The position numbers and the translations under genes are program-made. Shown piece after piece: positions 33,026 to 42,969 of a stretch of DNA of 64,000 nt; positions within the stretch are counted from its first letter, which is position 1, and every line of letters starts with the position of its first letter. Origin of the DNA: Escherichia coli. Its GTDB lineage: Bacteria > Pseudomonadota > Gammaproteobacteria > Enterobacterales > Enterobacteriaceae. The stretch lies in the NCBI RefSeq assembly GCF_003334765.1, contig NZ_QOWT01000007.1; one strand, given 5' to 3'. The notes under the pieces were generated by a model, which did no database searches, was not told where the DNA came from, and saw nothing but the letters and a program-made list of their open reading frames with translations.

Positions 33026-33838
33026 ATGGCTATTAAACTCATTGCTATCGATATGGATGGCACCCTTCTGCTGCCCGATCACACCATTTCACCCGCCGTT
33101 AAAAATGCGATTGCCGCAGCTCGCGCCCGTGGCGTGAATGTCGTGCTAACGACGGGTCGCCCGTATGCAGGTGTGCACAACTACCTGAAAGAGCTGCATA
33201 TGGAACAGCCGGGCGACTACTGCATTACTTATAACGGCGCGCTGGTACAGAAGGCCGCTGATGGTAGCACCGTGGCGCAAACTGCTCTCAGCTATGACGA
33301 CTATCGTTTCCTGGAAAAACTCTCTCGCGAAGTCGGTTCTCATTTCCACGCCCTGGACCGCACCACGCTGTACACCGCCAACCGTGATATCAGCTACTAC
33401 ACGGTGCATGAATCCTTCGTTGCCACCATTCCGCTGGTGTTCTGCGAAGCGGAGAAAATGGACCCCAATACCCAGTTCCTGAAAGTGATGATGATTGATG
33501 AACCCGCCATCCTCGACCAGGCTATCGCGCGTATTCCGCAGGAAGTGAAAGAGAAATATACCGTGCTGAAAAGTGCGCCGTACTTCCTCGAAATCCTCGA
33601 TAAACGCGTTAACAAAGGTACGGGGGTGAAATCACTGGCCGACGTGTTAGGTATTAAACCGGAAGAAATCATGGCGATTGGCGATCAGGAAAACGATATC
33701 GCAATGATTGAATATGCAGGCGTCGGTGTGGCGATGGATAACGCTATTCCTTCAGTGAAAGAAGTGGCGAACTTTGTCACCAAATCTAACCTTGAAGATG
33801 GCGTGGCGTTTGCTATTGAGAAGTATGTGCTGAATTAA
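33026..33838 (+). CDS. yidA: HAD-superfamily (Cof-type) sugar phosphatase YidA
   Basis: 270-aa ORF with HAD motif I IAIDMDGTLL. Confidence 0.9.
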   Translation: MAIKLIAIDMDGTLLLPDHTISPAVKNAIAAARARGVNVVLTTGRPYAGVHNYLKELHMEQPGDYCITYNGALVQKAADGSTVAQTALSYDDYRFLEKLSREVGSHFHALDRTTLYTANRDISYYTVHESFVATIPLVFCEAEKMDPNTQFLKVMMIDEPAILDQAIARIPQEVKEKYTVLKSAPYFLEILDKRVNKGTGVKSLADVLGIKPEEIMAIGDQENDIAMIEYAGVGVAMDNAIPSVKEVANFVTKSNLEDGVAFAIEKYVLN

Positions 33839-33883
33839 TCTGTGGGCGGGCAAACAGCATAAACGCGTTTGCCCGCTTACTGA

Positions 33884-34540
33884 TTATTGGTTTACTGCAT
33901 ATACAACCAGAAATTGCAGCGGTGCAGTAATGATGTCCAGCGTAACAGTCACTGGCAGTAATGCTGCGGAAACACCATCCGGAATGCCTCTGGGTGAATA
34001 GTATTCATAAAATCGCACTTTAAATGGATGGTAGAACGCCATCACCTTTGAGTAATCCATGTTTTTATTTTTCTCATGGATTGTGCCTTTTAGGTTTTCC
34101 AGTGACCTGGTACAGTGTTGAACACCACAGGCAAAACCATAATGCGTTGCCAGTGCCTTTTCTTCTTCGTTATTCCAGTAGTAGTAAAGCGATATTGTGC
34201 CGGTAAATTTCTTTTTCCCCGCATTTAAAACAAATCTTGCGTCATCGGCAACCTGAATATTGTGCCGGTTAAGTGCTGGATCATTGAGCATCTTAACGAT
34301 GTCATCGGCACCATCAGTGATAAGGTAATCCAGCGATTCCCCTACAAAAACATAGCCTTTTGTTCCATTACTATCTTTTGCCTGCGATAGCCCAGTGATG
34401 GTGTCTGACTGCGATTGATACTTTCCTGAACTACCCTTTGCGGTATGGGAAACCAGAGCATACGAGATACAGCCTGAAAGCATCAGCGCCAGTGGGAATA
34501 AACCGGCAGCCTTAAAAAATCCCTTAAAATTCAACTTCAT
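33884..34540 (-). CDS. yidX: putative lipoprotein YidX
   Basis: 218-aa product [24 protein letters not shown]... with lipobox LSGC; track ORF extends further upstream to 34657. Confidence 0.78.
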
Positions 34541-34678
34541 GATTAATCCTTTAAACGAGTAGCTAAGCCGTTGAAAGCATACTCTTCTTTCCCTCCTGTT
34601 TAGCGCCTGATATCCCTTTTCAGATTTCTGCCCGACGCATGTCATTTTTTTATGCATTGTTCTTTTTGTGATCTAAAT

Positions 34679-34751
34679 TGTAGTACAACAATATAAGTTT
34701 GTACTACATTACACGCACGGCAAACGCGAACGTCATCACGCTGGTACTACA
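34679..34751. promoter_or_regulatory. candidate DgoR operator repeats in dgo promoter
   Basis: Three GTA-N-TAC palindromic motifs: tgtagtaca (34679-34687), tgtactaca (34700-34708), ggtactaca (34743-34751); first two 21 bp apart. Confidence 0.45.
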
Positions 34752-34817
34752 AAGTTGCCGCGTTATGCATCGATCGGGGTAAAGTAGAGAAGAACATACA
34801 GAGCACAAGGACTCTCC

Positions 34818-35507
34818 ATGACTCTCAATAAAACCGATCGCATTGTCATTACGCTGGGTAAACAGATCGTTCACGGCAAATACGTGCCAGGCTCGCCGCT
34901 TCCGGCTGAGGCGGAACTCTGTGAGGAGTTTGCAACCTCGCGCAACATCATCCGTGAGGTGTTCCGTTCGCTGATGGCGAAGCGGCTGATTGAAATGAAA
35001 CGTTATCGCGGGGCGTTTGTGGCACCGCGTAACCAGTGGAATTACCTCGACACTGACGTACTGCAATGGGTGCTGGAAAATGACTACGACCCACGGCTTA
35101 TCAGTGCCATGAGCGAAGTGCGAAATCTGGTGGAACCGGCGATTGCCCGTTGGGCAGCAGAGCGCGCGACTTCCAGCGATCTGGCGCAGATTGAATCGGC
35201 GCTGAACGAGATGATTGCCAACAATCAGGACCGCGAAGCGTTTAACGAAGCGGATATTCGCTACCACGAGGCGGTGCTGCAGTCGGTGCATAACCCGGTG
35301 TTACAGCAACTTAGCATTGCGATCAGTTCGCTGCAGCGGGCGGTTTTTGAACGAACCTGGATGGGCGATGAGGCCAACATGCCGCAAACGCTCCAGGAAC
35401 ATAAGGCGCTGTTCGATGCGATACGACATCAGGACGGCGATGCGGCAGAGCAGGCGGCGCTTACCATGATCGCCAGCTCGACACGAAGGTTAAAGGAAAT
35501 CACATGA
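34818..35507 (+). CDS. dgoR: GntR/FadR-family repressor DgoR
   Basis: 229-aa ORF with N-terminal winged HTH. Confidence 0.9.
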   Translation: MTLNKTDRIVITLGKQIVHGKYVPGSPLPAEAELCEEFATSRNIIREVFRSLMAKRLIEMKRYRGAFVAPRNQWNYLDTDVLQWVLENDYDPRLISAMSEVRNLVEPAIARWAAERATSSDLAQIESALNEMIANNQDREAFNEADIRYHEAVLQSVHNPVLQQLSIAISSLQRAVFERTWMGDEANMPQTLQEHKALFDAIRHQDGDAAEQAALTMIASSTRRLKEIT

Positions 35508-36382
35508 CAGCTCGCTACATCGCAATTGACTGGGGATCGACCAATCTGCGCGCCTGGCTTTATCAGGGCGACCACTGCCTGGAGAGCAGGCAATCAGAAG
35601 CAGGCGTCACGCGCCTGAACGGAAAATCTCCGGCTGCGGTGTTAGCAGAAGTCACGACCGACTGGCGTGAAGAGAAAACGCCAGTGGTAATGGCAGGAAT
35701 GGTTGGCAGCAACGTCGGCTGGAAAGTTGCACCGTATTTATCTGTTCCTGCCTGTTTTTCGTCTATTGGCGAACAATTAACGTCAGTTGGCGACAATATC
35801 TGGATTATTCCCGGATTATGTGTCTCTCATGACGATAACCACAATGTGATGCGCGGCGAAGAAACACAATTGATCGGCGCGCGAGCTCTGGCTCCTTCCT
35901 CTCTTTATGTCATGCCCGGAACCCATTGCAAATGGGTGCAGGCCGATAGCCAGCAAATCAACGATTTTCGCACCGTGATGACCGGTGAATTACATCATTT
36001 ACTGTTAAATCACTCATTGATTGGCGCAGGTTTGCCGCCGCAGGAAAACTCTGCCGATGCCTTCACAGCTGGCCTTGAGCGTGGTCTTAATACGCCCGCC
36101 ATATTGCCGCAGCTTTTTGAAGTTCGCGCCTCGCATGTGCTGGGAACACTTCCCCGCGAACAGGTCAGCGAATTTCTCTCTGGTTTGTTGATTGGCGCAG
36201 AGGTCGCCAGTATGCGCGACTATGTGGCCCATCAACACGCCATCACCCTTGTCGCCGGAACATCGCTGACCGCGCGCTACCAGCAAGCCTTTCAGGCGAT
36301 GGGTTGCGACGTGACGGCGGTGGCGGGCGACACGGCATTTCAGGCTGGTATAAGGAGCATCGCTCATGCAGTGGCAAACTAA
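35504..36382 (+). CDS. dgoK: 2-dehydro-3-deoxygalactonokinase DgoK
   Basis: 292-aa ORF, start overlaps dgoR stop. Confidence 0.9.
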   Translation: MTARYIAIDWGSTNLRAWLYQGDHCLESRQSEAGVTRLNGKSPAAVLAEVTTDWREEKTPVVMAGMVGSNVGWKVAPYLSVPACFSSIGEQLTSVGDNIWIIPGLCVSHDDNHNVMRGEETQLIGARALAPSSLYVMPGTHCKWVQADSQQINDFRTVMTGELHHLLLNHSLIGAGLPPQENSADAFTAGLERGLNTPAILPQLFEVRASHVLGTLPREQVSEFLSGLLIGAEVASMRDYVAHQHAITLVAGTSLTARYQQAFQAMGCDVTAVAGDTAFQAGIRSIAHAVAN

Positions 36383-36983
36383 ACTCCCGCTGATCGCCAT
36401 TTTGCGCGGTATTACGCCCGACGAGGCGCTGGCGCATGTTGGCGCGGTGATTGACGCCGGGTTCGACGCGGTTGAAATCCCGCTGAATTCCCCACAATGG
36501 GAGCAAAGCATTCCCGCCATCGTTGATGCGTACGGCGACAAGGCGTTGATTGGCGCAGGTACGGTACTGAAACCTGAACAGGTCGATGCGCTCGCCAGGA
36601 TGAGCTGTCAGCTCATCGTTACGCCCAATATCCATAGTGAAGTGATCCGCCGTGCGGTGGGCTACGGCATGACCGTCTGCCCCGGCTGCGCGACGGCGAC
36701 CGAAGCCTTTACCGCGCTCGAAGCGGGCGCGCAGGCGCTGAAAATATTTCCGTCATCGGCTTTTGGTCCGCAATACATCAAAGCGTTAAAAGCGGTATTG
36801 CCATCGGACATCGCAGTCTTTGCCGTTGGCGGCGTGACGCCAGAAAACCTGGCGCAGTGGATAGACGCAGGTTGTGCAGGGGCGGGCTTAGGCAGCGATC
36901 TCTATCGCGCCGGGCAATCCGTAGAGCGCACCGCGCAGCAGGCAGCAGCATTTGTTAAGGCGTATCGAGAGGCAGTGCAATGA
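36366..36983 (+). CDS. dgoA: 2-dehydro-3-deoxy-6-phosphogalactonate aldolase DgoA
   Basis: 205-aa ORF, KDPG-aldolase-like. Confidence 0.9.
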
Positions 36984-38128
36984 AAATCACCAAAATTACC
37001 ACGTATCGTTTACCTCCCCGCTGGATGTTCCTGAAAATTGAAACCGATGAAGGCGTGGTCGGTTGGGGCGAGCCCGTGATCGAAGGCCGCGCCCGTACGG
37101 TGGAAGCGGCAGTTCACGAGCTGGGTGACTATTTGATTGGTCAGGATCCATCGCGCATCAATGACTTATGGCAAGTGATGTATCGCGCCGGATTCTATCG
37201 CGGCGGTCCGATCCTGATGAGCGCCATCGCCGGGATTGACCAGGCGTTATGGGATATCAAAGGTAAAGTGCTGAATGCGCCGGTCTGGCAACTGATGGGC
37301 GGCCTGGTTCGCGACAAAATTAAAGCCTACAGTTGGGTTGGCGGCGATCGTCCGGCGGATGTTATCGACGGCATTAAAACGCTACGCGAAATCGGCTTCG
37401 ATACCTTCAAACTGAACGGTTGTGAAGAACTGGGGCTAATTGATAACTCCCGCGCGGTAGATGCGGCGGTTAACACCGTGGCACAAATTCGTGAAGCTTT
37501 TGGCAATCAGATTGAGTTTGGTCTTGATTTCCACGGTCGCGTCAGCGCGCCGATGGCGAAAGTGCTGATTAAAGAACTGGAGCCGTATCGCCCGCTGTTT
37601 ATTGAGGAGCCGGTGCTGGCGGAACAAGCCGAATACTACCCGAAACTGGCGGCACAAACGCATATTCCACTGGCGGCGGGTGAACGCATGTTCTCACGCT
37701 TCGATTTTAAACGCGTGCTGGAGGCAGGTGGTATTTCGATTCTGCAACCGGATCTCTCCCACGCGGGCGGTATTACCGAATGCTACAAAATCGCCGGAAT
37801 GGCAGAAGCCTATGACGTGACCCTTGCGCCGCACTGTCCGCTCGGACCGATTGCACTGGCGGCTTGCCTGCATATCGACTTTGTTTCCTATAACGCCGTA
37901 CTTCAGGAACAAAGTATGGGAATTCATTACAACAAAGGCGCGGAGTTACTCGACTTTGTGAAAAACAAAGAAGACTTCAGCATGGTCGGCGGCTTCTTTA
38001 AACCGTTAACGAAACCGGGCTTAGGCGTGGAAATCGACGAAGCTAAAGTGATTGAGTTCAGTAAAAATGCCCCGGACTGGCGTAATCCGCTCTGGCGTCA
38101 TGAAGATAACAGCGTAGCAGAGTGGTAA
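36980..38128 (+). CDS. dgoD: D-galactonate dehydratase DgoD (enolase superfamily)
   Basis: 382-aa ORF overlapping dgoA stop. Confidence 0.93.
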
Positions 38129-38247
38129 TTCCTGCCACGTAAGCCCCTCATCGGGCACTAAAACAGCAATACAAAAATATAACCCTCTGTAAATTACAGG
38201 GCATGGTGAGCGGCTTCGCTATGCCCAAAATCTGGAGAAAGCTCGCT

Positions 38248-39540
38248 ATGGATATTCCCGTTAATGCAGCAAAGCCGGGGCGTCGGCGTTATCTGACGCT
38301 GGTGATGATCTTTATTACGGTAGTCATTTGTTATGTCGACCGCGCCAACCTGGCCGTGGCTTCCGCCCATATTCAGGAAGAGTTCGGCATTACCAAAGCG
38401 GAAATGGGCTATGTATTTTCGGCCTTCGCCTGGCTTTATACGCTATGTCAGATCCCCGGCGGTTGGTTTTTAGATCGCGTAGGTTCTCGCGTGACTTATT
38501 TTATTGCGATATTTGGCTGGTCAGTGGCGACTTTATTCCAGGGCTTTGCCACGGGCTTAATGTCATTAATTGGTCTGCGCGCGATAACCGGTATTTTCGA
38601 AGCGCCTGCTTTCCCGACCAATAACCGGATGGTGACCAGCTGGTTCCCGGAACATGAACGCGCTTCTGCCGTTGGTTTTTATACGTCTGGTCAGTTTGTC
38701 GGTCTGGCGTTTCTGACGCCGCTGCTGATCTGGATTCAGGAGATGTTGAGCTGGCACTGGGTGTTCATTGTCACTGGTGGTATCGGCATTATCTGGTCGC
38801 TGATTTGGTTTAAGGTTTATCAGCCGCCGCGCCTGACCAAAGGTATCAGCAAAGCTGAACTGGATTACATTCGTGATGGCGGCGGTCTGGTGGATGGTGA
38901 TGCGCCGGTGAAGAAAGAGGCGCGTCAGCCGTTAACAGCCAAAGACTGGAAACTGGTGTTCCATCGTAAACTGATCGGCGTTTATCTTGGGCAATTTGCG
39001 GTGGCTTCTACACTGTGGTTTTTCTTAACCTGGTTCCCGAACTATTTAACCCAGGAAAAAGGAATCACGGCGCTGAAAGCAGGCTTTATGACCACGGTGC
39101 CATTCCTCGCGGCGTTTGTCGGCGTCCTGCTCTCTGGCTGGGTAGCGGATCTGCTGGTACGTAAGGGCTTTTCACTGGGCTTTGCGCGTAAAACGCCGAT
39201 TATCTGCGGCTTGCTGATCTCCACCTGCATTATGGGCGCTAACTACACTAACGATCCGATGATGATTATGTGCCTGATGGCGCTGGCATTCTTCGGTAAC
39301 GGTTTTGCTTCGATTACCTGGTCGCTGGTTTCTTCTCTGGCACCGATGCGCCTGATTGGTTTAACCGGCGGCGTGTTTAACTTCGCCGGTGGTCTGGGCG
39401 GCATCACCGTTCCGCTGGTGGTGGGGTACCTGGCGCAGGGTTACGGTTTCGCACCTGCACTGGTTTATATCTCCGCCGTCGCGTTGATTGGCGCGCTCTC
39501 TTATATCCTGCTGGTGGGCGATGTGAAGCGCGTTGGCTAA
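38248..39540 (+). CDS. dgoT: D-galactonate:H+ symporter DgoT (MFS)
   Basis: 430-aa product [18 protein letters not shown]... (track start 38203 is an extension). Confidence 0.88.
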
Positions 39541-40601
39541 TCCTTCAACTGTGGAATATGTGCCACACCACTGCGCATAATCCACTTTCTTAAAGCCGGT
39601 GCGGTCAGGCATCGGCTTTTTACTATCTTGCCGAAGAGTTTTAAACGCAGTTTGCGGGTGGCGCGCCAGTAAGCGGTATTGAGCTTCTCTGGCTGCTTCA
39701 GTAACACCGAACGCAGAATGTCTGTGCTATCCAGCGCATAGCTAATCCCCTCCAGCGAGCTGGCGCTGATAAATCCCGCCGCTTCACCAATCAGAAAGGC
39801 GTTGTCCTTACCGCAGACAAAATCCTGCCAGCGCGAGGGAAACAGCACCGTGCATTTTTCGCTTTTCACCGTCTTACCAAACTGGAACTGAAAGGCGCTC
39901 ATTTTCTCTTTCAGCGTCGTGAAACGCGTCTGACCGTCTTTCATTGGATAGGCACCGCCAAAGATAAAATAACCGTCTTTGCTGATACTCCATGAATAAC
40001 AGTTAGTTATCGAATTATCAAAGATGCAGGAGTAGAACGGCACCGGATGTTTCTCCGCGAACCACTGCTGGATAGCGACATATTTACGGATTTGATGATC
40101 CGGGTAGAGATGTCGCCGCACCATCGAGTTTGCGCCATCGGCACCGACCAGATAGCGGGCGGTAATATGTTGCTCCCAGCCGTCTGCACGAAAAATGACA
40201 TGCCATTTATCATCCTCACGCCAGATTTTTCGGCACAGGCTGTCGTGATAAACCTCAACGCTGGCGGGGATCAGCGATTTCATCCACAAGTCGAAAGCAT
40301 GGCGATTAATATTGATATAGCTTCGCTGGTAGTTACGCGTGAGCGATGCGGCGACGTCGACGGTTTTGACGCTGAAAATCTGCGGATTAGCGATCACATC
40401 GACAGGAAGCGTCAGCCCATCGCGAATAAAAGATCGCTGCGCGTCCGGTGCCAGCAGACCGCCGCAGGGTTTGCTGAAACCTTCAGTACCACACTGGTGC
40501 TTTTTATCCAGCGCGATCACCTGCATTTTGCCTGCTAACTTTCGTGCCAACGCCGATCCTGCCGGGCCGAGGCCAATAATCGCCACGTCGAAATGTTCCA
40601 T
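39537..40601 (-). CDS. cbrA: FAD-dependent oxidoreductase CbrA
   Basis: 354-aa product [19 protein letters not shown]... with dinucleotide-binding GxGxxG. Confidence 0.85.
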
Positions 40602-40665
40602 CTTTTCACTCACATTCATCACGATGGCAAAAGACTATTGTCTGAAAGTGAAGTCCTTGTGAAGT

Positions 40666-41916
40666 ATGATGGCGGGACCCGTTTTGTATCAGGACCGCGC
40701 CATGAAACAGATAACCTTTGCTCCCCGTAATCACCTGCTCACCAATACCAATACCTGGACGCCCGACAGCCAGTGGCTGGTATTTGACGTGCGTCCTTCT
40801 GGCGCGTCGTTTACCGGCGAGACCATTGAGCGTGTGAATATCCATACCGGCGAGGTCGAGGTTATCTATCGCGCGTCACAGGGCGCACACGTCGGCGTGG
40901 TGACCGTTCATCCGAAGTCAGAGAAATATGTTTTCATCCACGGCCCGGAAAATCCTGATGAAACATGGCATTACGACTTCCATCATCGGCGCGGAGTGAT
41001 TGTTGAAGGCGGCAAGATGAGTAACCTTGATGCGATGGATATTACCGCGCCGTATACGCCAGGAGTGCTGCGCGGCGGCAGCCATGTGCATGTCTTTAGC
41101 CCGAACGGTGAAAGGGTGAGCTTTACCTATAACGATCATGTAATGCATGAACTCGATCCGGCGCTGGATTTGCGAAACGTCGGTGTTGCTGCGCCGTTTG
41201 GCCCGGTCAACGTACAAAAGCAGCATCCGCGTGAATACAGCGGTAGCCACTGGTGCGTGCTGGTGAGCAAAACCACGCCCACGCCACAGCCTGGCAGTGA
41301 TGAAATCAATCGTGCTTATGAAGAAGGATGGGTAGGAAATCACGCGCTGGCATTTATTGGCGACACACTTTCGCCAAAGGGCGAGAAAGTGCCGGAGCTG
41401 TTTATCGTTGAGTTACCGCAAGATGAAGCTGGCTGGAAAGCGGCAGGTGATGCGCCGTTAAGCGGAACGGAAACAACCCTGCCCGCGCCACCGCGTGGCG
41501 TCGTGCAGCGACGTTTAACCTTTACCCACCATCGGGCTTATCCGGGGTTAGTCAACGTCCCGCGCCACTGGGTGCGCTGTAATCCGCAGGGTACACAAAT
41601 CGCGTTTTTAATGCGAGATGATAACGGCATTGTGCAACTGTGGCTTATCTCGCCACAGGGCGGCGAGCCGCGCCAGTTAACCCATAACAAAACGGATATT
41701 CAGTCTGCATTTAACTGGCATCCGTCAGGAGAATGGTTGGGCTTTGTGCTGGATAATCGAATTGCTTGTGCCCATGCGCAAAGCGGCGAGGTTGAGTATT
41801 TAACCGAACACCACGCCAATTCACCTTCTGCGGACGCCGTGGTCTTCTCGCCGGATGGTCAGTGGCTGGCGTGGATGGAAGGCGGCCAGCTGTGGATCAC
41901 CGAAACTGATCGCTAA
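40666..41916 (+). CDS. yidR: uncharacterized protein YidR
   Basis: About 415-aa ORF; start ambiguous between tandem ATG codons. Confidence 0.78.
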   Translation: MMAGPVLYQDRAMKQITFAPRNHLLTNTNTWTPDSQWLVFDVRPSGASFTGETIERVNIHTGEVEVIYRASQGAHVGVVTVHPKSEKYVFIHGPENPDETWHYDFHHRRGVIVEGGKMSNLDAMDITAPYTPGVLRGGSHVHVFSPNGERVSFTYNDHVMHELDPALDLRNVGVAAPFGPVNVQKQHPREYSGSHWCVLVSKTTPTPQPGSDEINRAYEEGWVGNHALAFIGDTLSPKGEKVPELFIVELPQDEAGWKAAGDAPLSGTETTLPAPPRGVVQRRLTFTHHRAYPGLVNVPRHWVRCNPQGTQIAFLMRDDNGIVQLWLISPQGGEPRQLTHNKTDIQSAFNWHPSGEWLGFVLDNRIACAHAQSGEVEYLTEHHANSPSADAVVFSPDGQWLAWMEGGQLWITETDR

Positions 41917-41917
41917 A

Positions 41918-42250
41918 TCAGTTATCAGGCATTCTGGCCGGTGGAATAACCGCATTGGTGGCTTGCGCGTTGGCTTCGCTTTTTTCAACGCGCGAGCGCA
42001 CCGAGCTGTCTTTGCGGAACACATCCCACGGCAGTAAAAGCGTGTCCATCACAGCGGTAAACGGCATATCGAGAATCGCCAGCGACTTAGTGCCCCAGTT
42101 GGTTTCATCGTCGCCAATCATGGTTGCGCTGGCGCGGGTGCCGGGATACGTTCCTTCTTTCCCTCCGGTATGGGACATCACGCTGGAGCATCCTCCGAGT
42201 AATGTCATTCCGCTGCATATCATGAACGCTAACAACACATTTCTTATCAT
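41918..42250 (-). CDS. yidQ: putative lipoprotein YidQ
   Basis: 110-aa product MIRNVLLAFMICSGMTLLGGCSS... with lipobox LGGC; track ORF extended upstream. Confidence 0.7.
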   Translation of the reverse strand: MIRNVLLAFMICSGMTLLGGCSSVMSHTGGKEGTYPGTRASATMIGDDETNWGTKSLAILDMPFTAVMDTLLLPWDVFRKDSSVRSRVEKSEANAQATNAVIPPARMPDN

Positions 42251-42424
42251 AATAAATTCATCTGTTGATCGTGGGTGTTGGCCTGATGAGTTATAGCGAT
42301 CCCTTGCTGAAAATAACATCATCATTACGTCGCACTGTGGCGGCTATCGCACTTTAACGTTTCGTGCTGCCCCCTCAGTCTATGCAATAGACCATAAACT
42401 GCAAAAAAAAGTCCGCTGATAAGG

Positions 42425-42455: not shown

Positions 42456-42555
42456 CATCGTAGCCGATGAGGACGCGCCTGATGGGTGTTCTGGCTACCT
42501 GACCTGTCCATTGTGGAAGGTCTTACATTCTCGCTGATTTCAGGAGCTATTGATT

Positions 42556-42969
42556 ATGCGTAACTTTGATTTATCCCCGCTTTACCGTTCTGCTATTGGA
42601 TTTGACCGTTTGTTTAACCACTTAGAAAACAACCAGAGCCAGAGTAATGGCGGCTACCCTCCGTATAACGTTGAACTGGTAGACGAAAACCATTACCGCA
42701 TTGCTATCGCTGTGGCTGGTTTTGCTGAGAGCGAACTGGAAATTACCGCCCAGGATAATCTGCTGGTGGTGAAAGGTGCTCACGCCGACGAACAAAAAGA
42801 GCGCACCTATCTGTACCAGGGCATCGCTGAACGCAACTTTGAACGCAAATTCCAGTTAGCTGAGAACATTCATGTTCGTGGTGCTAACCTGGTAAATGGT
42901 TTGCTGTATATCGATCTCGAACGCGTGATTCCGGAAGCGAAAAAACCGCGCCGTATCGAAATCAACTAA
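42556..42969 (+). CDS. ibpA: small heat-shock protein IbpA
   Basis: 137-aa product [19 protein letters not shown]..., alpha-crystallin domain. Confidence 0.94.

Follow-up and report, generated by a model that had tools for sequence, protein, structure and literature searches.

An ordinary Escherichia coli segment with two predicted lipoproteins, a putative sugar-acid propeller and divergent allele classes of yidX beside the galactonate operon

Positions 33884-42250 of the window (the whole stretch of 64,000 nucleotides analysed here) are an ordinary E. coli segment carrying yidX, dgoRKADT, cbrA, yidR and yidQ, and the three yid genes are already known and annotated in this species. With slightly better than even confidence, we read this segment as a whole as one in which YidX and YidQ are lipoproteins, YidR is a propeller for sugar acids, no system is formed with dgo, and yidX occurs in distinct allele classes. 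The window is E. coli chromosome (100% identity to E. coli chromosomes), and a 10-kb segment was found in 5425 of 5426 complete E. coli genomes. With gene coordinates carried over from the RefSeq annotation onto window positions, the interval is bounded exactly by the stop of yidX and the start of yidQ, just as the first-pass annotation had placed it, and both lipoprotein N-termini given there were identical. That annotation had described the three genes as flanking the dgo operon (34818-39540, plus strand, RefSeq annotation, treated here as context only): yidX does directly abut it, but cbrA and yidR sit between dgoT and yidQ, and cbrA had been overlooked. The latter (yidS; 39537-40601, minus strand, RefSeq annotation) is a colicin M resistance gene of FAD-dependent, geranylgeranyl-reductase-like type whose last 4 nt overlap dgoT, and its product matched NCBIfam NF008519 (685.8 bits) as well as a geranylgeranyl reductase subfamily model. 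The view that yidX, yidQ and yidR still await a function held good, as no mechanistic work on YidX, YidQ/YceK, DUF1375 or DUF3748 turned up in full-text literature searches.

YidX and YidQ are predicted to be precursors with signal-peptidase-II sites and a residue other than Asp at +2. Under two formal lipobox rules, a PROSITE PS00013-type rule and a G+LPP pattern, the match in YidX fell on Cys24 by both patterns (LSGC, Ile at +2; signal peptide residues 1-24, 34469-34540, minus strand) and that in YidQ on Cys21 (LGGC, Ser at +2; residues 1-21, 42188-42250, minus strand), and the same rules gave no match in CbrA or YidR. The first-pass annotation had called both proteins lipoproteins and had named a lack of signal peptidase II sites on formal prediction as the finding that would speak against this; rule-based sites are present in both. 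Furthermore, G23 and C24 of YidX show no variation in 13 homologues, nor in the relatives from Proteus, Salmonella and Acinetobacter that tblastn recovered, and the lipobox Cys of YidQ is invariant in 60 orthologues, with YidQ also detected in outer-membrane vesicles (PMC7973035).

The yidX gene (33884-34540, minus strand, ORF and RefSeq annotation) encodes a 218-aa lipoprotein precursor and is here a class I allele. The ATG of this frame has a good Shine-Dalgarno sequence (AAGGA) upstream, and a longer 257-aa ORF has no lipobox at a workable distance. Close to the C-terminus lies the motif LLPVTxTLDxxTxPLQ (residues 194-209; 33914-33961, minus strand), which is invariant across all allele classes, retained as LLP.T...D....P as far as Acinetobacter, and, the signal peptide apart, the 19-aa window of highest hydropathy in the protein (Kyte-Doolittle 1.5-1.8). 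With a hydropathy of about 1.75, the C-terminus could serve as a stop-transfer helix, in which case YidX would stay in the inner membrane despite the +2 rule. A Foldseek search gave 175 AFDB matches at E<=1e-3, and nearly all of the 50 listed were named only 'Lipoprotein'. YidX is probably one of a rapidly evolving family of lipoproteins of ~220 aa from host-associated Proteobacteria, which share a conserved hydrophobic C-terminal motif.

Comparison with other genomes points to two ancient allele classes of yidX in E. coli, common to several Escherichia species. Genomes with class I number 3539 and those with class II 1886; the two classes share 60% aa identity. Divergence is confined to a block of ~815 bp (33841-34656, unstranded) that takes in yidX with the spacer 3' of it and some 115 nt upstream, where identity to E. 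coli 83972 is 65-80%, against 95-100% in the flanks; likewise, dS is 1.36 for yidX versus 0.02-0.23 in 13 neighbouring genes. We give even chances to a neutral reading of this dimorphism, in which it is left over from one or a few past replacements of the allele, by homologous recombination from other Escherichia lineages, and is not kept up by selection. That reading accords with the sharp edges of the block inside conserved flanks, the near absence of intermediates between the classes, the dN/dS of 0.20 (purifying selection on both classes) and the 90-94% identity of class II to E. marmotae and E. albertii alleles, as vertical descent predicts; it sits less easily with the presence of deeply diverged classes in both E. 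coli and E. albertii, at least four in number, and with the restriction of the block to a single exported-protein gene. The depth and number of the classes and their confinement to one gene would be typical of an exposed protein under selection.

As for the relation to galactonate metabolism, gene order indicates that yidX, yidQ and yidR adjoin the dgo operon through insertions and not through joint function. In a synteny survey of 64 Enterobacterales loci, yidR was followed by convergent yidQ at 60, among them those of Photorhabdus, Xenorhabdus, Morganella and Tatumella, which have neither ibpAB nor yidA nearby. Near yidR, dgo was found at about 19-21 of the 64 loci, cbrA at 11 and yidX at 4, and yidA lay directly upstream at 13. 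The ancestral Enterobacterales order is yidA> yidR> <yidQ ibpA>, and dgo, cbrA and yidX are lineage-specific insertions between yidA and yidR. The sole conserved unit among these genes is yidR/yidQ with its adjacent or overlapping ends: at 40 of the 60 loci with measured junction gaps, the genes overlap or leave at most 6 nt between their stop codons. In the window, the tail-to-tail junction (41914-41920, unstranded, from coordinates) has one nucleotide between the stop codons, and no terminator-like site was predicted there. The earlier statement that nothing indicated a multi-gene system survives for dgo, which some two thirds of the yidR-yidQ loci lack, but it missed the conserved yidR-yidQ pair. 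Overlapping yidR and yidQ transcripts, a convergent excludon, have been described by RNA-seq analysis (PMC12288877). Because the yidQ transcript must run into yidR, induction of yidQ probably lowers yidR expression, and vice versa; the adjacency could also be plain inherited synteny.

yidQ (41918-42250, minus strand, RefSeq) encodes a 110-aa lipoprotein precursor of the YceK/YidQ family with the N-terminus MIRNVLLAFMICSGMTLLGGC. The protein matched NCBIfam NF008628 (211.9 bits, cutoff 91) and, over residues 35-76, Pfam DUF1375 (PF07119, 1.5e-08), while the YceK model NF007555 gave 4.8e-08, below that model's cutoff. The DUF1375 core (42023-42148, minus strand, Pfam match) includes the motif ILDMPFTAVMDTLLLPWD, and the pattern [IL]D[LM]PF[ST]A..DT.LLP.D is conserved across 60 orthologues; no demonstrated function for any member of the YceK/YidQ family was found in the literature. 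About 100 nt upstream of yidQ lies a MarA/SoxS/Rob-type box, GCACGAAACGTTAAA (42353-42367, minus strand), an exact match unique in the window, which corresponds exactly to a MarA ChIP-seq site at ibpA<>yidQ (PMC5684230). Published work also has RamA and SoxS binding the equivalent Salmonella region, and places yidQ in a CpxR regulon list and in the sigmaE regulon, its overexpression being toxic; simple scans upstream of the gene found no sigmaE-like promoter and no CpxR box. YidQ is probably a small lipoprotein of the outer membrane that envelope stress induces (Cpx, sigmaE, MarA/SoxS/RamA), and it probably acts via its invariant Pro-bracketed, Asp-containing hydrophobic segment touching the membrane or an envelope partner.

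YidR is predicted to be a signal-less seven-bladed beta-propeller of PD40 type, 404 aa long and belonging to the DUF3748 family (yidR, 40702-41916, plus strand, RefSeq start). The first-pass annotation had put it at ~415 aa, the ORF has 416 codons from the first ATG and the old K-12 annotation had 415 aa, but a published N-terminal peptide and Ribo-seq data move the start downstream by 11 codons (10.1101/113530), to 40702. The predicted -10 box overlaps the old yidR ATGs. In the cbrA-yidR gap, the predicted promoter (hexamers at 40642-40670) is overlapped by a perfect cre-tag-like repeat, TTCACAAGGACTTCAC (40648-40663, minus strand), an exact match to TTCACnnnnnnTTCAC, which we take to be the cre-tag consensus. 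Nor is the protein free of recognisable motifs, as had been supposed, since DUF3748 (PF12566) matched residues 63-179 in the 404-aa numbering (40888-41238, plus strand, E = 8.6e-58) and PD40, DPPIV_N and TolB blades matched weakly. The AF2 model is a seven-bladed propeller (pLDDT 97.5, pTM 0.94), no signal peptide, lipobox or hydrophobic segment was found in YidR, and the dN/dS of yidR is 0.087. Conservation marks out a family signature, RGGSHVHVFSPNGERVSFTYND (residues 124-145; 41071-41136, plus strand), with H128, H130, Y143 and D145: in 72 sequences down to 29% identity, G125, G126 and Y143 are invariant and H128, H130 and D145 are at least 90% conserved, and all of these residues are still invariant in 18 multidomain relatives. 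From strand topology only, the conserved residues R96, H128, H130, Y143, D145 and R158 are predicted to line the upper end of the central channel.

The most likely place of YidR is in the cytoplasm, where it would bind or act enzymatically on an anionic sugar, be it a uronate, an aldonate or a keto-deoxy acid. Such a role is favoured because YidR relatives in other phyla are often exported and occur as neighbours or fusion partners of glycoside hydrolases and sulfatases: 27 of 72 have N-terminal signal sequences, 9 of these with a lipobox; fusions to a sulfatase, a GH31 and a BNR_2 domain were seen once each, together with T9SS sorting tails, in metagenomic gene calls; and the neighbours include GH1+GH36+MFS, GH43+GH20+GH9+CE4, and a TonB receptor, HAD and PfkB kinase. 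Four of the seven non-enterobacterial contexts were uninformative, and the 16 loci from Planctomycetota/Verrucomicrobiota had no neighbour in common. A published yidR deletion grows poorly on galacturonate and gluconate, and these phenotypes may not belong to YidR, because read-through from the Keio cassette in yidR is antisense to yidQ.

We consider it unlikely that YidR is instead a non-catalytic scaffold or peptide-binding propeller (TolB- or S9-gating-like) whose conserved residues bind protein or peptide: the two His, two or three Arg, Tyr and Asp invariant in DUF3748 would fit catalysis or the binding of small anions better, the fusion partners and neighbours are enzymes of carbohydrates and not of proteolysis, and there is no hydrolase domain in YidR. 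Clearly less probable is a role as an accessory of the D-galactonate pathway (a lactonase or epimerase feeding DgoD), functionally part of dgo, since the yidR loci without dgo include those of E. albertii, Serratia, Yersinia, Erwinia, Pantoea and Photorhabdus. Two TGTA(G/C)TACA repeats in the yidX-dgoR intergenic region (34679-34708, plus strand, pattern search and sequence), presumably DgoR operators, were found by pattern search only at the dgoR promoter, with none upstream of yidR or yidQ. yidR does lie downstream of dgoT on the same strand, and the published expression correlation with dgoT/D/R/K is in line with such a role; read-through could also give co-expression, as no terminator was predicted after dgoT, and cbrA-dgoT is itself a published excludon (PMC12288877). 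The published deletion metabotype, nearest to dgoT (CLR 12.7), also speaks for that role but may be a plate-position artefact, because the similarity lists are crowded with the chromosomal neighbours yicI/J/M, setC, yieP, dgoT/R and yidX; moreover, the growth defects reported concern galacturonate and gluconate, with none on galactonate in the text consulted.

Very unlikely, and not supported as a family membership, is that YidR is a divergent PL22-type oligogalacturonate lyase. Compared with PL22 Ogl (PDB 3pe7, 3c5m), it lacks specific sequence homology: the family profile reached at most 20% probability against two PL22 sequences, with generic blades alone aligned, and when PDB sequences were searched with a profile (E<=10), the 60 best matches listed contained no PL22 sequence. 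The HxH motif lies in the last blade of PL22 (H353/H355) and in the third blade of YidR, and nothing conserved in the YidR consensus corresponds to the other PL22 Mn ligands (H287 and Q350) in the only weak blade register that the profile comparison offered, read by eye. Least likely of all is the surface adhesin, 'hyperadherence' factor or ATP/GTP-binding protein of the vaccine and plant-attachment literature, for although Salmonella yidR mutants are published as attaching more weakly to lettuce and forming less biofilm, YidR-based vaccines as protecting mice from K. pneumoniae and EHEC, and a natural yidR stop codon as occurring in a low-infectivity S. Enteritidis isolate, the E. coli protein is predicted to be a soluble propeller without signal peptide, lipobox or hydrophobic segment, no P-loop motif was found in it, indirect effects or polarity on yidQ could account for the adhesion phenotypes, and the 'hyperadherence' label, under which genome announcements lump yidQ, yidP and yidR together, presumably spread from a neighbouring-gene phenotype.

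Divergent-allele loci for envelope proteins are a general phenomenon in E. coli. For yidX, unlike them, no ligand, phage, colicin or immune pressure is known, and the surface exposure of YidX is putative; like them, yidX has at least two deep classes within one species, is confined to one exported-protein gene and extends across species. YidQ resembles its E. coli paralogue YceK in being a small lipoprotein with the core motif D-x-P-F-S-A-x-x-D-T-L-L-L-P, and differs from it by an additional C-terminal tail of about 35 residues. Finally, set against the propellers of the TolB C-terminal domain and of the S9 (prolyl-oligopeptidase-type) peptidases, YidR is predicted to be a stand-alone, cytoplasmic propeller, without the TolB N-terminal domain, signal peptide or alpha/beta-hydrolase domain, and distinguished by the DUF3748 insert, which is specific to its family and has His, Arg, Tyr and Asp residues that do not vary.

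Several E. coli chromosomes carry the 10-kb segment around the interval 33884-42250 with 100% identity, and of the 5426 complete E. coli genomes 5425 contain it. Transferred onto the ORF map of the window, the RefSeq annotation places yidA at 33026-33838 (+), yidX at 33884-34540 (-), dgoR, K, A, D and T at 34818-39540 (+), cbrA at 39537-40601 (-), yidR at 40702-41916 (+), yidQ at 41918-42250 (-) and ibpA at 42556-42969 (+). The limits set by the first-pass annotation coincide exactly with the stop codon of yidX and the start codon of yidQ; the N-termini it quoted for YidX and YidQ were both exact. It had described yidX, yidQ and yidR as flanking the dgo operon, which holds for yidX, directly adjoining dgo, and not for yidR and yidQ; cbrA, an FAD-dependent, geranylgeranyl-reductase-like colicin M resistance gene inside the interval, had gone unmentioned. 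On the whole, its observation is confirmed with corrections and its interpretation is partly supported. The three genes are already known and annotated, without an established function, and do not constitute a new kind of system; the leads that remain are the conserved tail-to-tail yidR/yidQ pair and the dimorphism of yidX alleles.

For the first of these leads, yidR loci were scanned in one genome per species with a profile built from 12 sequences, and the best 80 loci comprised 64 from Enterobacterales (92% to 52% identity) and 16 from Planctomycetota/Verrucomicrobiota (47-50%). Tblastn of the window proteins against these loci found a convergent yidQ downstream of yidR in 60 of the 64 Enterobacterales loci, the dgo operon beside it in about 19-21, cbrA in 11 and yidX in 4, with yidA directly upstream of yidR in 13, an order seen in many genera. 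Photorhabdus, Xenorhabdus, Morganella and Tatumella keep the convergent yidQ and have neither ibpAB nor yidA nearby, and E. albertii NBRC 107761 carries yidA-yidX-cbrA-yidR-yidQ with dgo absent. In 40 of 60 loci, furthermore, at most 6 nt separate the stop codons of yidR and yidQ, or the two genes overlap (by up to 47 nt); in 56 of 60 the distance is no more than 104 nt. Taken together, the synteny counts point to an ancestral order yidA> yidR> <yidQ ibpA>, and dgoRKADT, cbrA and yidX are later, lineage-specific insertions between yidA and yidR. To judge from this gene order, yidR/yidQ is the sole candidate functional unit in the interval. The earlier view that no multi-gene system is present therefore stands as far as dgo is concerned, the co-location not being conserved, and fails for yidR and yidQ, a conserved convergent pair. 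The closest relatives of YidR outside Enterobacterales among the best 80 loci (47-50% identity) all belong to Planctomycetota/Verrucomicrobiota, with no intermediates; no conserved neighbours of yidR were found in those 16 loci. An old horizontal transfer of yidR between the two groups is suggested.

According to a published RNA-seq analysis, convergent excludons, that is, gene pairs with overlapping antisense 3' ends, occur in E. coli at yidQ-yidR, cbrA-dgoT and yidX-yidA (PMC12288877). The yidR/yidQ junction has the corresponding layout, with a single nucleotide (41917) between the stop codons and no predicted terminator, the transcript overlap itself being taken from that publication. The dgoT/cbrA junction (4-nt overlap, 39537-39540) and the yidA/yidX junction (45-nt gap, 33839-33883) are likewise free of a predicted terminator. 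No unit other than yidR and yidQ is conserved here, so knockouts of one gene by a cassette that reads outward are confounded at this locus.

The proposal that YidX and YidQ are lipoproteins is supported by sequence rules. Under the lipoprotein rule (PROSITE PS51257-type: a positively charged N-region, then a hydrophobic core, then a lipobox whose final Cys falls at position 15-35), applied through a PS00013-type rule and the G+LPP pattern, signal peptidase II sites are predicted in both proteins; the outcome that was to refute the first-pass reading, a lack of such sites, did not arise. YidX has K2, K6 and K10, a hydrophobic core and LSGC with Cys24; YidQ has R3 followed by ICSGMTLLGGC with Cys21, and Gly at -2 makes it miss the strict form L-[AS]-[GA]-C. 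YidR and CbrA matched neither pattern. In the longer upstream ORFs (257 and 135 aa) the Cys is too distant from the start to serve as a lipobox. The Cys is invariant among homologues, being kept in 60/60 YidQ orthologues from 60 genomes, and in 13/13 YidX homologues as well as in the Salmonella, Proteus and Acinetobacter relatives. Under the Lol sorting rule, lipoproteins without Asp at +2 are predicted to reach the outer membrane; the +2 residue is Ile in YidX and Ser in YidQ, so both would be sorted there. YidQ has been detected in outer-membrane vesicles of a tolA strain (PMC7973035). YidX has a hydrophobic C-terminus (hydropathy 1.75) and may reside in either membrane.

YidQ belongs to the YceK/YidQ family, scoring 211.9 bits against the equivalog model NF008628 (cutoff 91, residues 1-110 covered) and matching PF07119 (DUF1375) at E 1.5e-08. 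Its orthologues, taken from the yidR synteny loci, keep the lipobox, a G-x-Y-P-G-T element and the motif [IL]D[LM]PF[ST]A..DT.LLP.D (60 orthologues). A word-indexed protein search retrieved only E. coli entries of 98-100% identity, a search of PDB sequences gave no significant match, and our literature search found no description of the mechanism of the YceK/YidQ family. As to regulation, yidQ is on a published CpxR regulon list, has been treated as a sigmaE-regulon gene that is toxic on overexpression, and neighbours a MarA ChIP-seq site reported at ibpA<>yidQ, and the equivalent Salmonella region is bound by RamA and SoxS. The window contains the MarA-box 15-mer GCACGAAACGTTAAA exactly once; this copy, at 42353-42367 (-), precedes yidQ by about 100 nt. 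Simple scans upstream of yidQ, yidR and yidX found no CpxR box or sigmaE promoter; being crude, they do not contradict the published regulon data. The ibpA-yidQ intergenic region carries this MarA box on the minus strand and a sigma32-type ibpA promoter on the opposite strand, and additionally holds a ROSE_2 RNA thermometer at 42490-42562 (+) (Rfam, 100.4 bits). We conclude that YidQ is probably a small outer-membrane lipoprotein induced by envelope stress, the regulatory evidence coming entirely from publications.

For YidR, the older annotation of 415 aa, the length also proposed at first, is superseded by the RefSeq start at 40702, which gives 404 aa and agrees with published ribosome profiling and N-terminomics, in which translation begins 11 codons after the older start (10.1101/113530). 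A predicted -10 hexamer, TATGAT, lies at 40665-40670, across the old ATGs. Within the 100 nt between cbrA and yidR there is also a perfect cre-tag-like repeat, TTCACAAGGACTTCAC, at 40648-40663 (-), overlapping the predicted yidR promoter; given this position, CreBC control of cbrA could also affect yidR. The protein had been thought to lack any recognisable motif; instead, it matches Pfam DUF3748 over model positions 1-123 of 123 (E 8.6e-58), with weak PD40, DPPIV_N and TolB blade matches at its C-terminus. Neither a signal peptide nor a P-loop was found in its sequence. An exhaustive search of 50%-identity cluster representatives returned 187 relatives at E<=1e-30. An AlphaFold2 model from a 72-sequence alignment (pLDDT 97.5, pTM 0.94) takes the form of a seven-bladed propeller. 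The invariant or near-invariant residues are D29, R31, Y91, R96, G121, G125, G126, H128, H130, Y143, D145, R158 and W210, which, from strand topology, we infer to lie on the inner strands and B-C loops of blades 1-4. In propellers, the inner strands and B-C loops form the usual active-site face.

For YidX, a Pfam-A scan gave no match even at E<=10, no NCBIfam model applied, and no relative occurs among PDB sequences; PF27265.1 is precomputed for YidX homologues in the protein database, and the Pfam-A copy that we scanned did not return it. The idea of an Escherichia-restricted orphan was rejected, since Foldseek and tblastn reveal a far wider and very divergent family. A word-indexed search gave 42 clusters, and Foldseek against AFDB50 gave 175 matches at E<=1e-3. 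The 50 matches listed, from Salmonella, Proteus, Yersinia, Klebsiella, Pasteurellaceae, Acinetobacter and Neisseria, nearly all bear no description beyond 'Lipoprotein' and measure about 220-250 aa. Tblastn relatives in Proteus (41%), Salmonella Infantis (46%) and Acinetobacter (26%) each have a different genomic context. In a wide alignment reaching Acinetobacter (26%), all eight sequences keep the lipobox, C138, a few scattered Gly, Tyr and Phe residues and, as the most striking conserved feature, a C-terminal LLP-x-T-x3-D-x4-P; a DSNGT-GYVF-G element is invariant in closer relatives and not conserved in Acinetobacter. Several public records of YidX are odd and look like annotation or contamination errors: UniProt entries of E. 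coli O157:H7 and Shigella call it 'Replicase', an E. coli yidX with 100% identity turns up in two 'Campylobacter phage' records of about 174 kb (MG065691 and MG065686), and several Mb-sized chromosomes are filed as plasmids or phages.

Outside its signal peptide, YidX is most hydrophobic in this C-terminal segment. In YidX (33914-33961, -) and YidQ (42023-42148, -) alike, the part after the signal peptide that ranks highest in both conservation and hydrophobicity has the spacing P-x-[ST]-x3-D-x4-P. Homology of the YidX motif to the DUF1375 core was considered and is not supported: hhalign gave 13% probability and aligned the signal peptides alone, an HMM of the YidQ motif retrieved no YidX ORF among 10,610 background ORFs at E<=1000, and the loose expression P.[ST]...D....P also matches 34 unrelated ORFs. 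By these comparisons the likeness would be a resemblance only, without statistical support.

The second lead is the variation of yidX itself. Class I, the allele of the window, also found in K-12, O157:H7, O104:H4 and W, occurs in 3539 of 5425 genomes and class II, found in Nissle 1917 and 83972, in 1886. They share about 70% nucleotide and 60% amino-acid identity, and intermediates are almost absent. Divergence from strain 83972 is confined to about 33841-34656, with flanks 95-100% identical. The block has sharp edges: one lies 3 nt past the stop codon of yidA, the other some 115 nt before the start codon of yidX and just short of two TGTA(G/C)TACA repeats. For yidX, dS is 1.36 and dN 0.27 (dN/dS 0.20), against dS of 0.02-0.23 in 13 neighbouring genes. 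The allele of the E. albertii type strain shares 94% identity with class II, and that of E. marmotae 90%; a third class, carried by a few E. coli and by another E. albertii, shares 73-76% with class I, and a fourth exists. On this evidence the classes are ancient and trans-species, each under purifying selection. They may be maintained by selection or may be leftovers of allele replacement. A more specific scenario, which we consider rather unlikely, would have an exposed YidX kept as ancient classes by balancing or frequency-dependent selection from phage, bacteriocin or host immunity, its Pro-x-Thr-x3-Asp-x4-Pro segment docking to a membrane or partner like the YceK/YidQ core. If that scenario were true, YidX and the DUF1375 lipoproteins would share one hitherto undescribed anchoring mechanism. 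In any case, yidX offers a clean example of a hyper-divergent allele block at a core-genome position, and could mark selection on the envelope.

As for what YidR does, 27 of the 72 relatives have N-terminal export signals, 9 of these with a lipobox. Among long relatives, the fusion partners, each seen in a single case, are a sulfatase, a GH31 enzyme and a BNR_2 domain, and T9SS sorting tails also occur. Sugar-utilisation genes occur in three of seven non-enterobacterial neighbourhoods (GH1, GH36 and MFS; GH43, GH20, GH9 and CE4; TonB receptor, HAD and PfkB kinase), and no informative genes were found in the other four. The HAD hydrolase beside the Bacteroidota-like relative was considered as a YidA and turned out not to be a YidA orthologue. 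A yidR deletion grows poorly on galacturonate and gluconate (PMC5293155). The export signals, fusions, neighbourhoods and published data therefore led us to read YidR as a cytoplasmic protein that binds an anionic sugar or acts on it as an enzyme, a reading that we rate as plausible, if somewhat below an even chance.

A narrower proposal ties YidR to galactonate: the metabolome of the yidR deletion most resembles that of dgoT, and its expression correlates with the dgo genes (PMC5293155). This link is weak, for several reasons. The dgo operon is absent from most genomes that keep yidR. Of the TGTA(G/C)TACA repeats, which we take to be DgoR operators, a pattern search of the window located two (34679 and 34700) in the promoter region that dgoR shares with yidX, one at an unrelated position, 23588, and none ahead of yidR or yidQ. 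Transcripts of dgoT may plausibly read through, given that a terminator is not predicted there and that cbrA-dgoT has been published as an excludon. The Keio cassette in yidR reads into antisense yidQ. The metabotype lists holding yidR (PMC5293155 supplement) are rich in chromosomal neighbours, namely yicI, yicJ, yicM, setC, yieP, dgoT, dgoR and yidX, as a Keio plate-position batch effect would produce, which weakens the published link to dgoT. The association thus probably arises from the location of the gene, by way of read-through transcription or the layout of the plates, and not from its function.

Salmonella yidR mutants attach more weakly to lettuce, and several papers name YidR an adhesion factor and use it as a vaccine antigen. 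YidR remains under development as an antigen, and its sequence indicates a cytoplasmic propeller with an enzyme-like conserved pocket; surface-adhesin and ATP/GTP-binding labels find no support there. The antigen rationale and the labels 'hyperadherence' and 'ATP/GTP-binding' therefore need re-examination.

Membership of YidR in the oligogalacturonate lyases of family PL22 (Ogl) was considered as well. The PL22 sequences 3pe7 and 3c5m, recovered from the PDB by an approximate Ogl query, were compared with the 72-sequence YidR profile; hhalign gave a probability of at most 20% and aligned generic blades alone, and PL22 entries are absent among the 60 best matches listed from the YidR profile search of the PDB. 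Both families have HxH just before a PD40-like turn. In PL22, however, we take the Mn2+ ligands to be His287, Gln350, His353 and His355, with His242 and Arg217 catalytic (YeOGL numbering, positions checked on the 3pe7 sequence); its HxH sits in the last blade, the seventh, with H287 and Q350 as fellow metal ligands, whereas the invariant H128/H130 of YidR lies in blade 3 and the YidR family consensus has no conserved counterparts of H287 and Q350. PL22 membership is thus not supported, and the resemblance is kept at most as an analogy. YidR does not fit the S9 prolyl-oligopeptidase family, as its 404 aa are a propeller alone, lacking the alpha/beta-hydrolase domain with its Ser-Asp-His triad, and its matches to S9 chains are confined to their propeller blades. 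What YidR does fit is the seven-bladed PD40-type beta-propeller, with a predicted all-beta fold of seven blades and structural matches to solved propellers.
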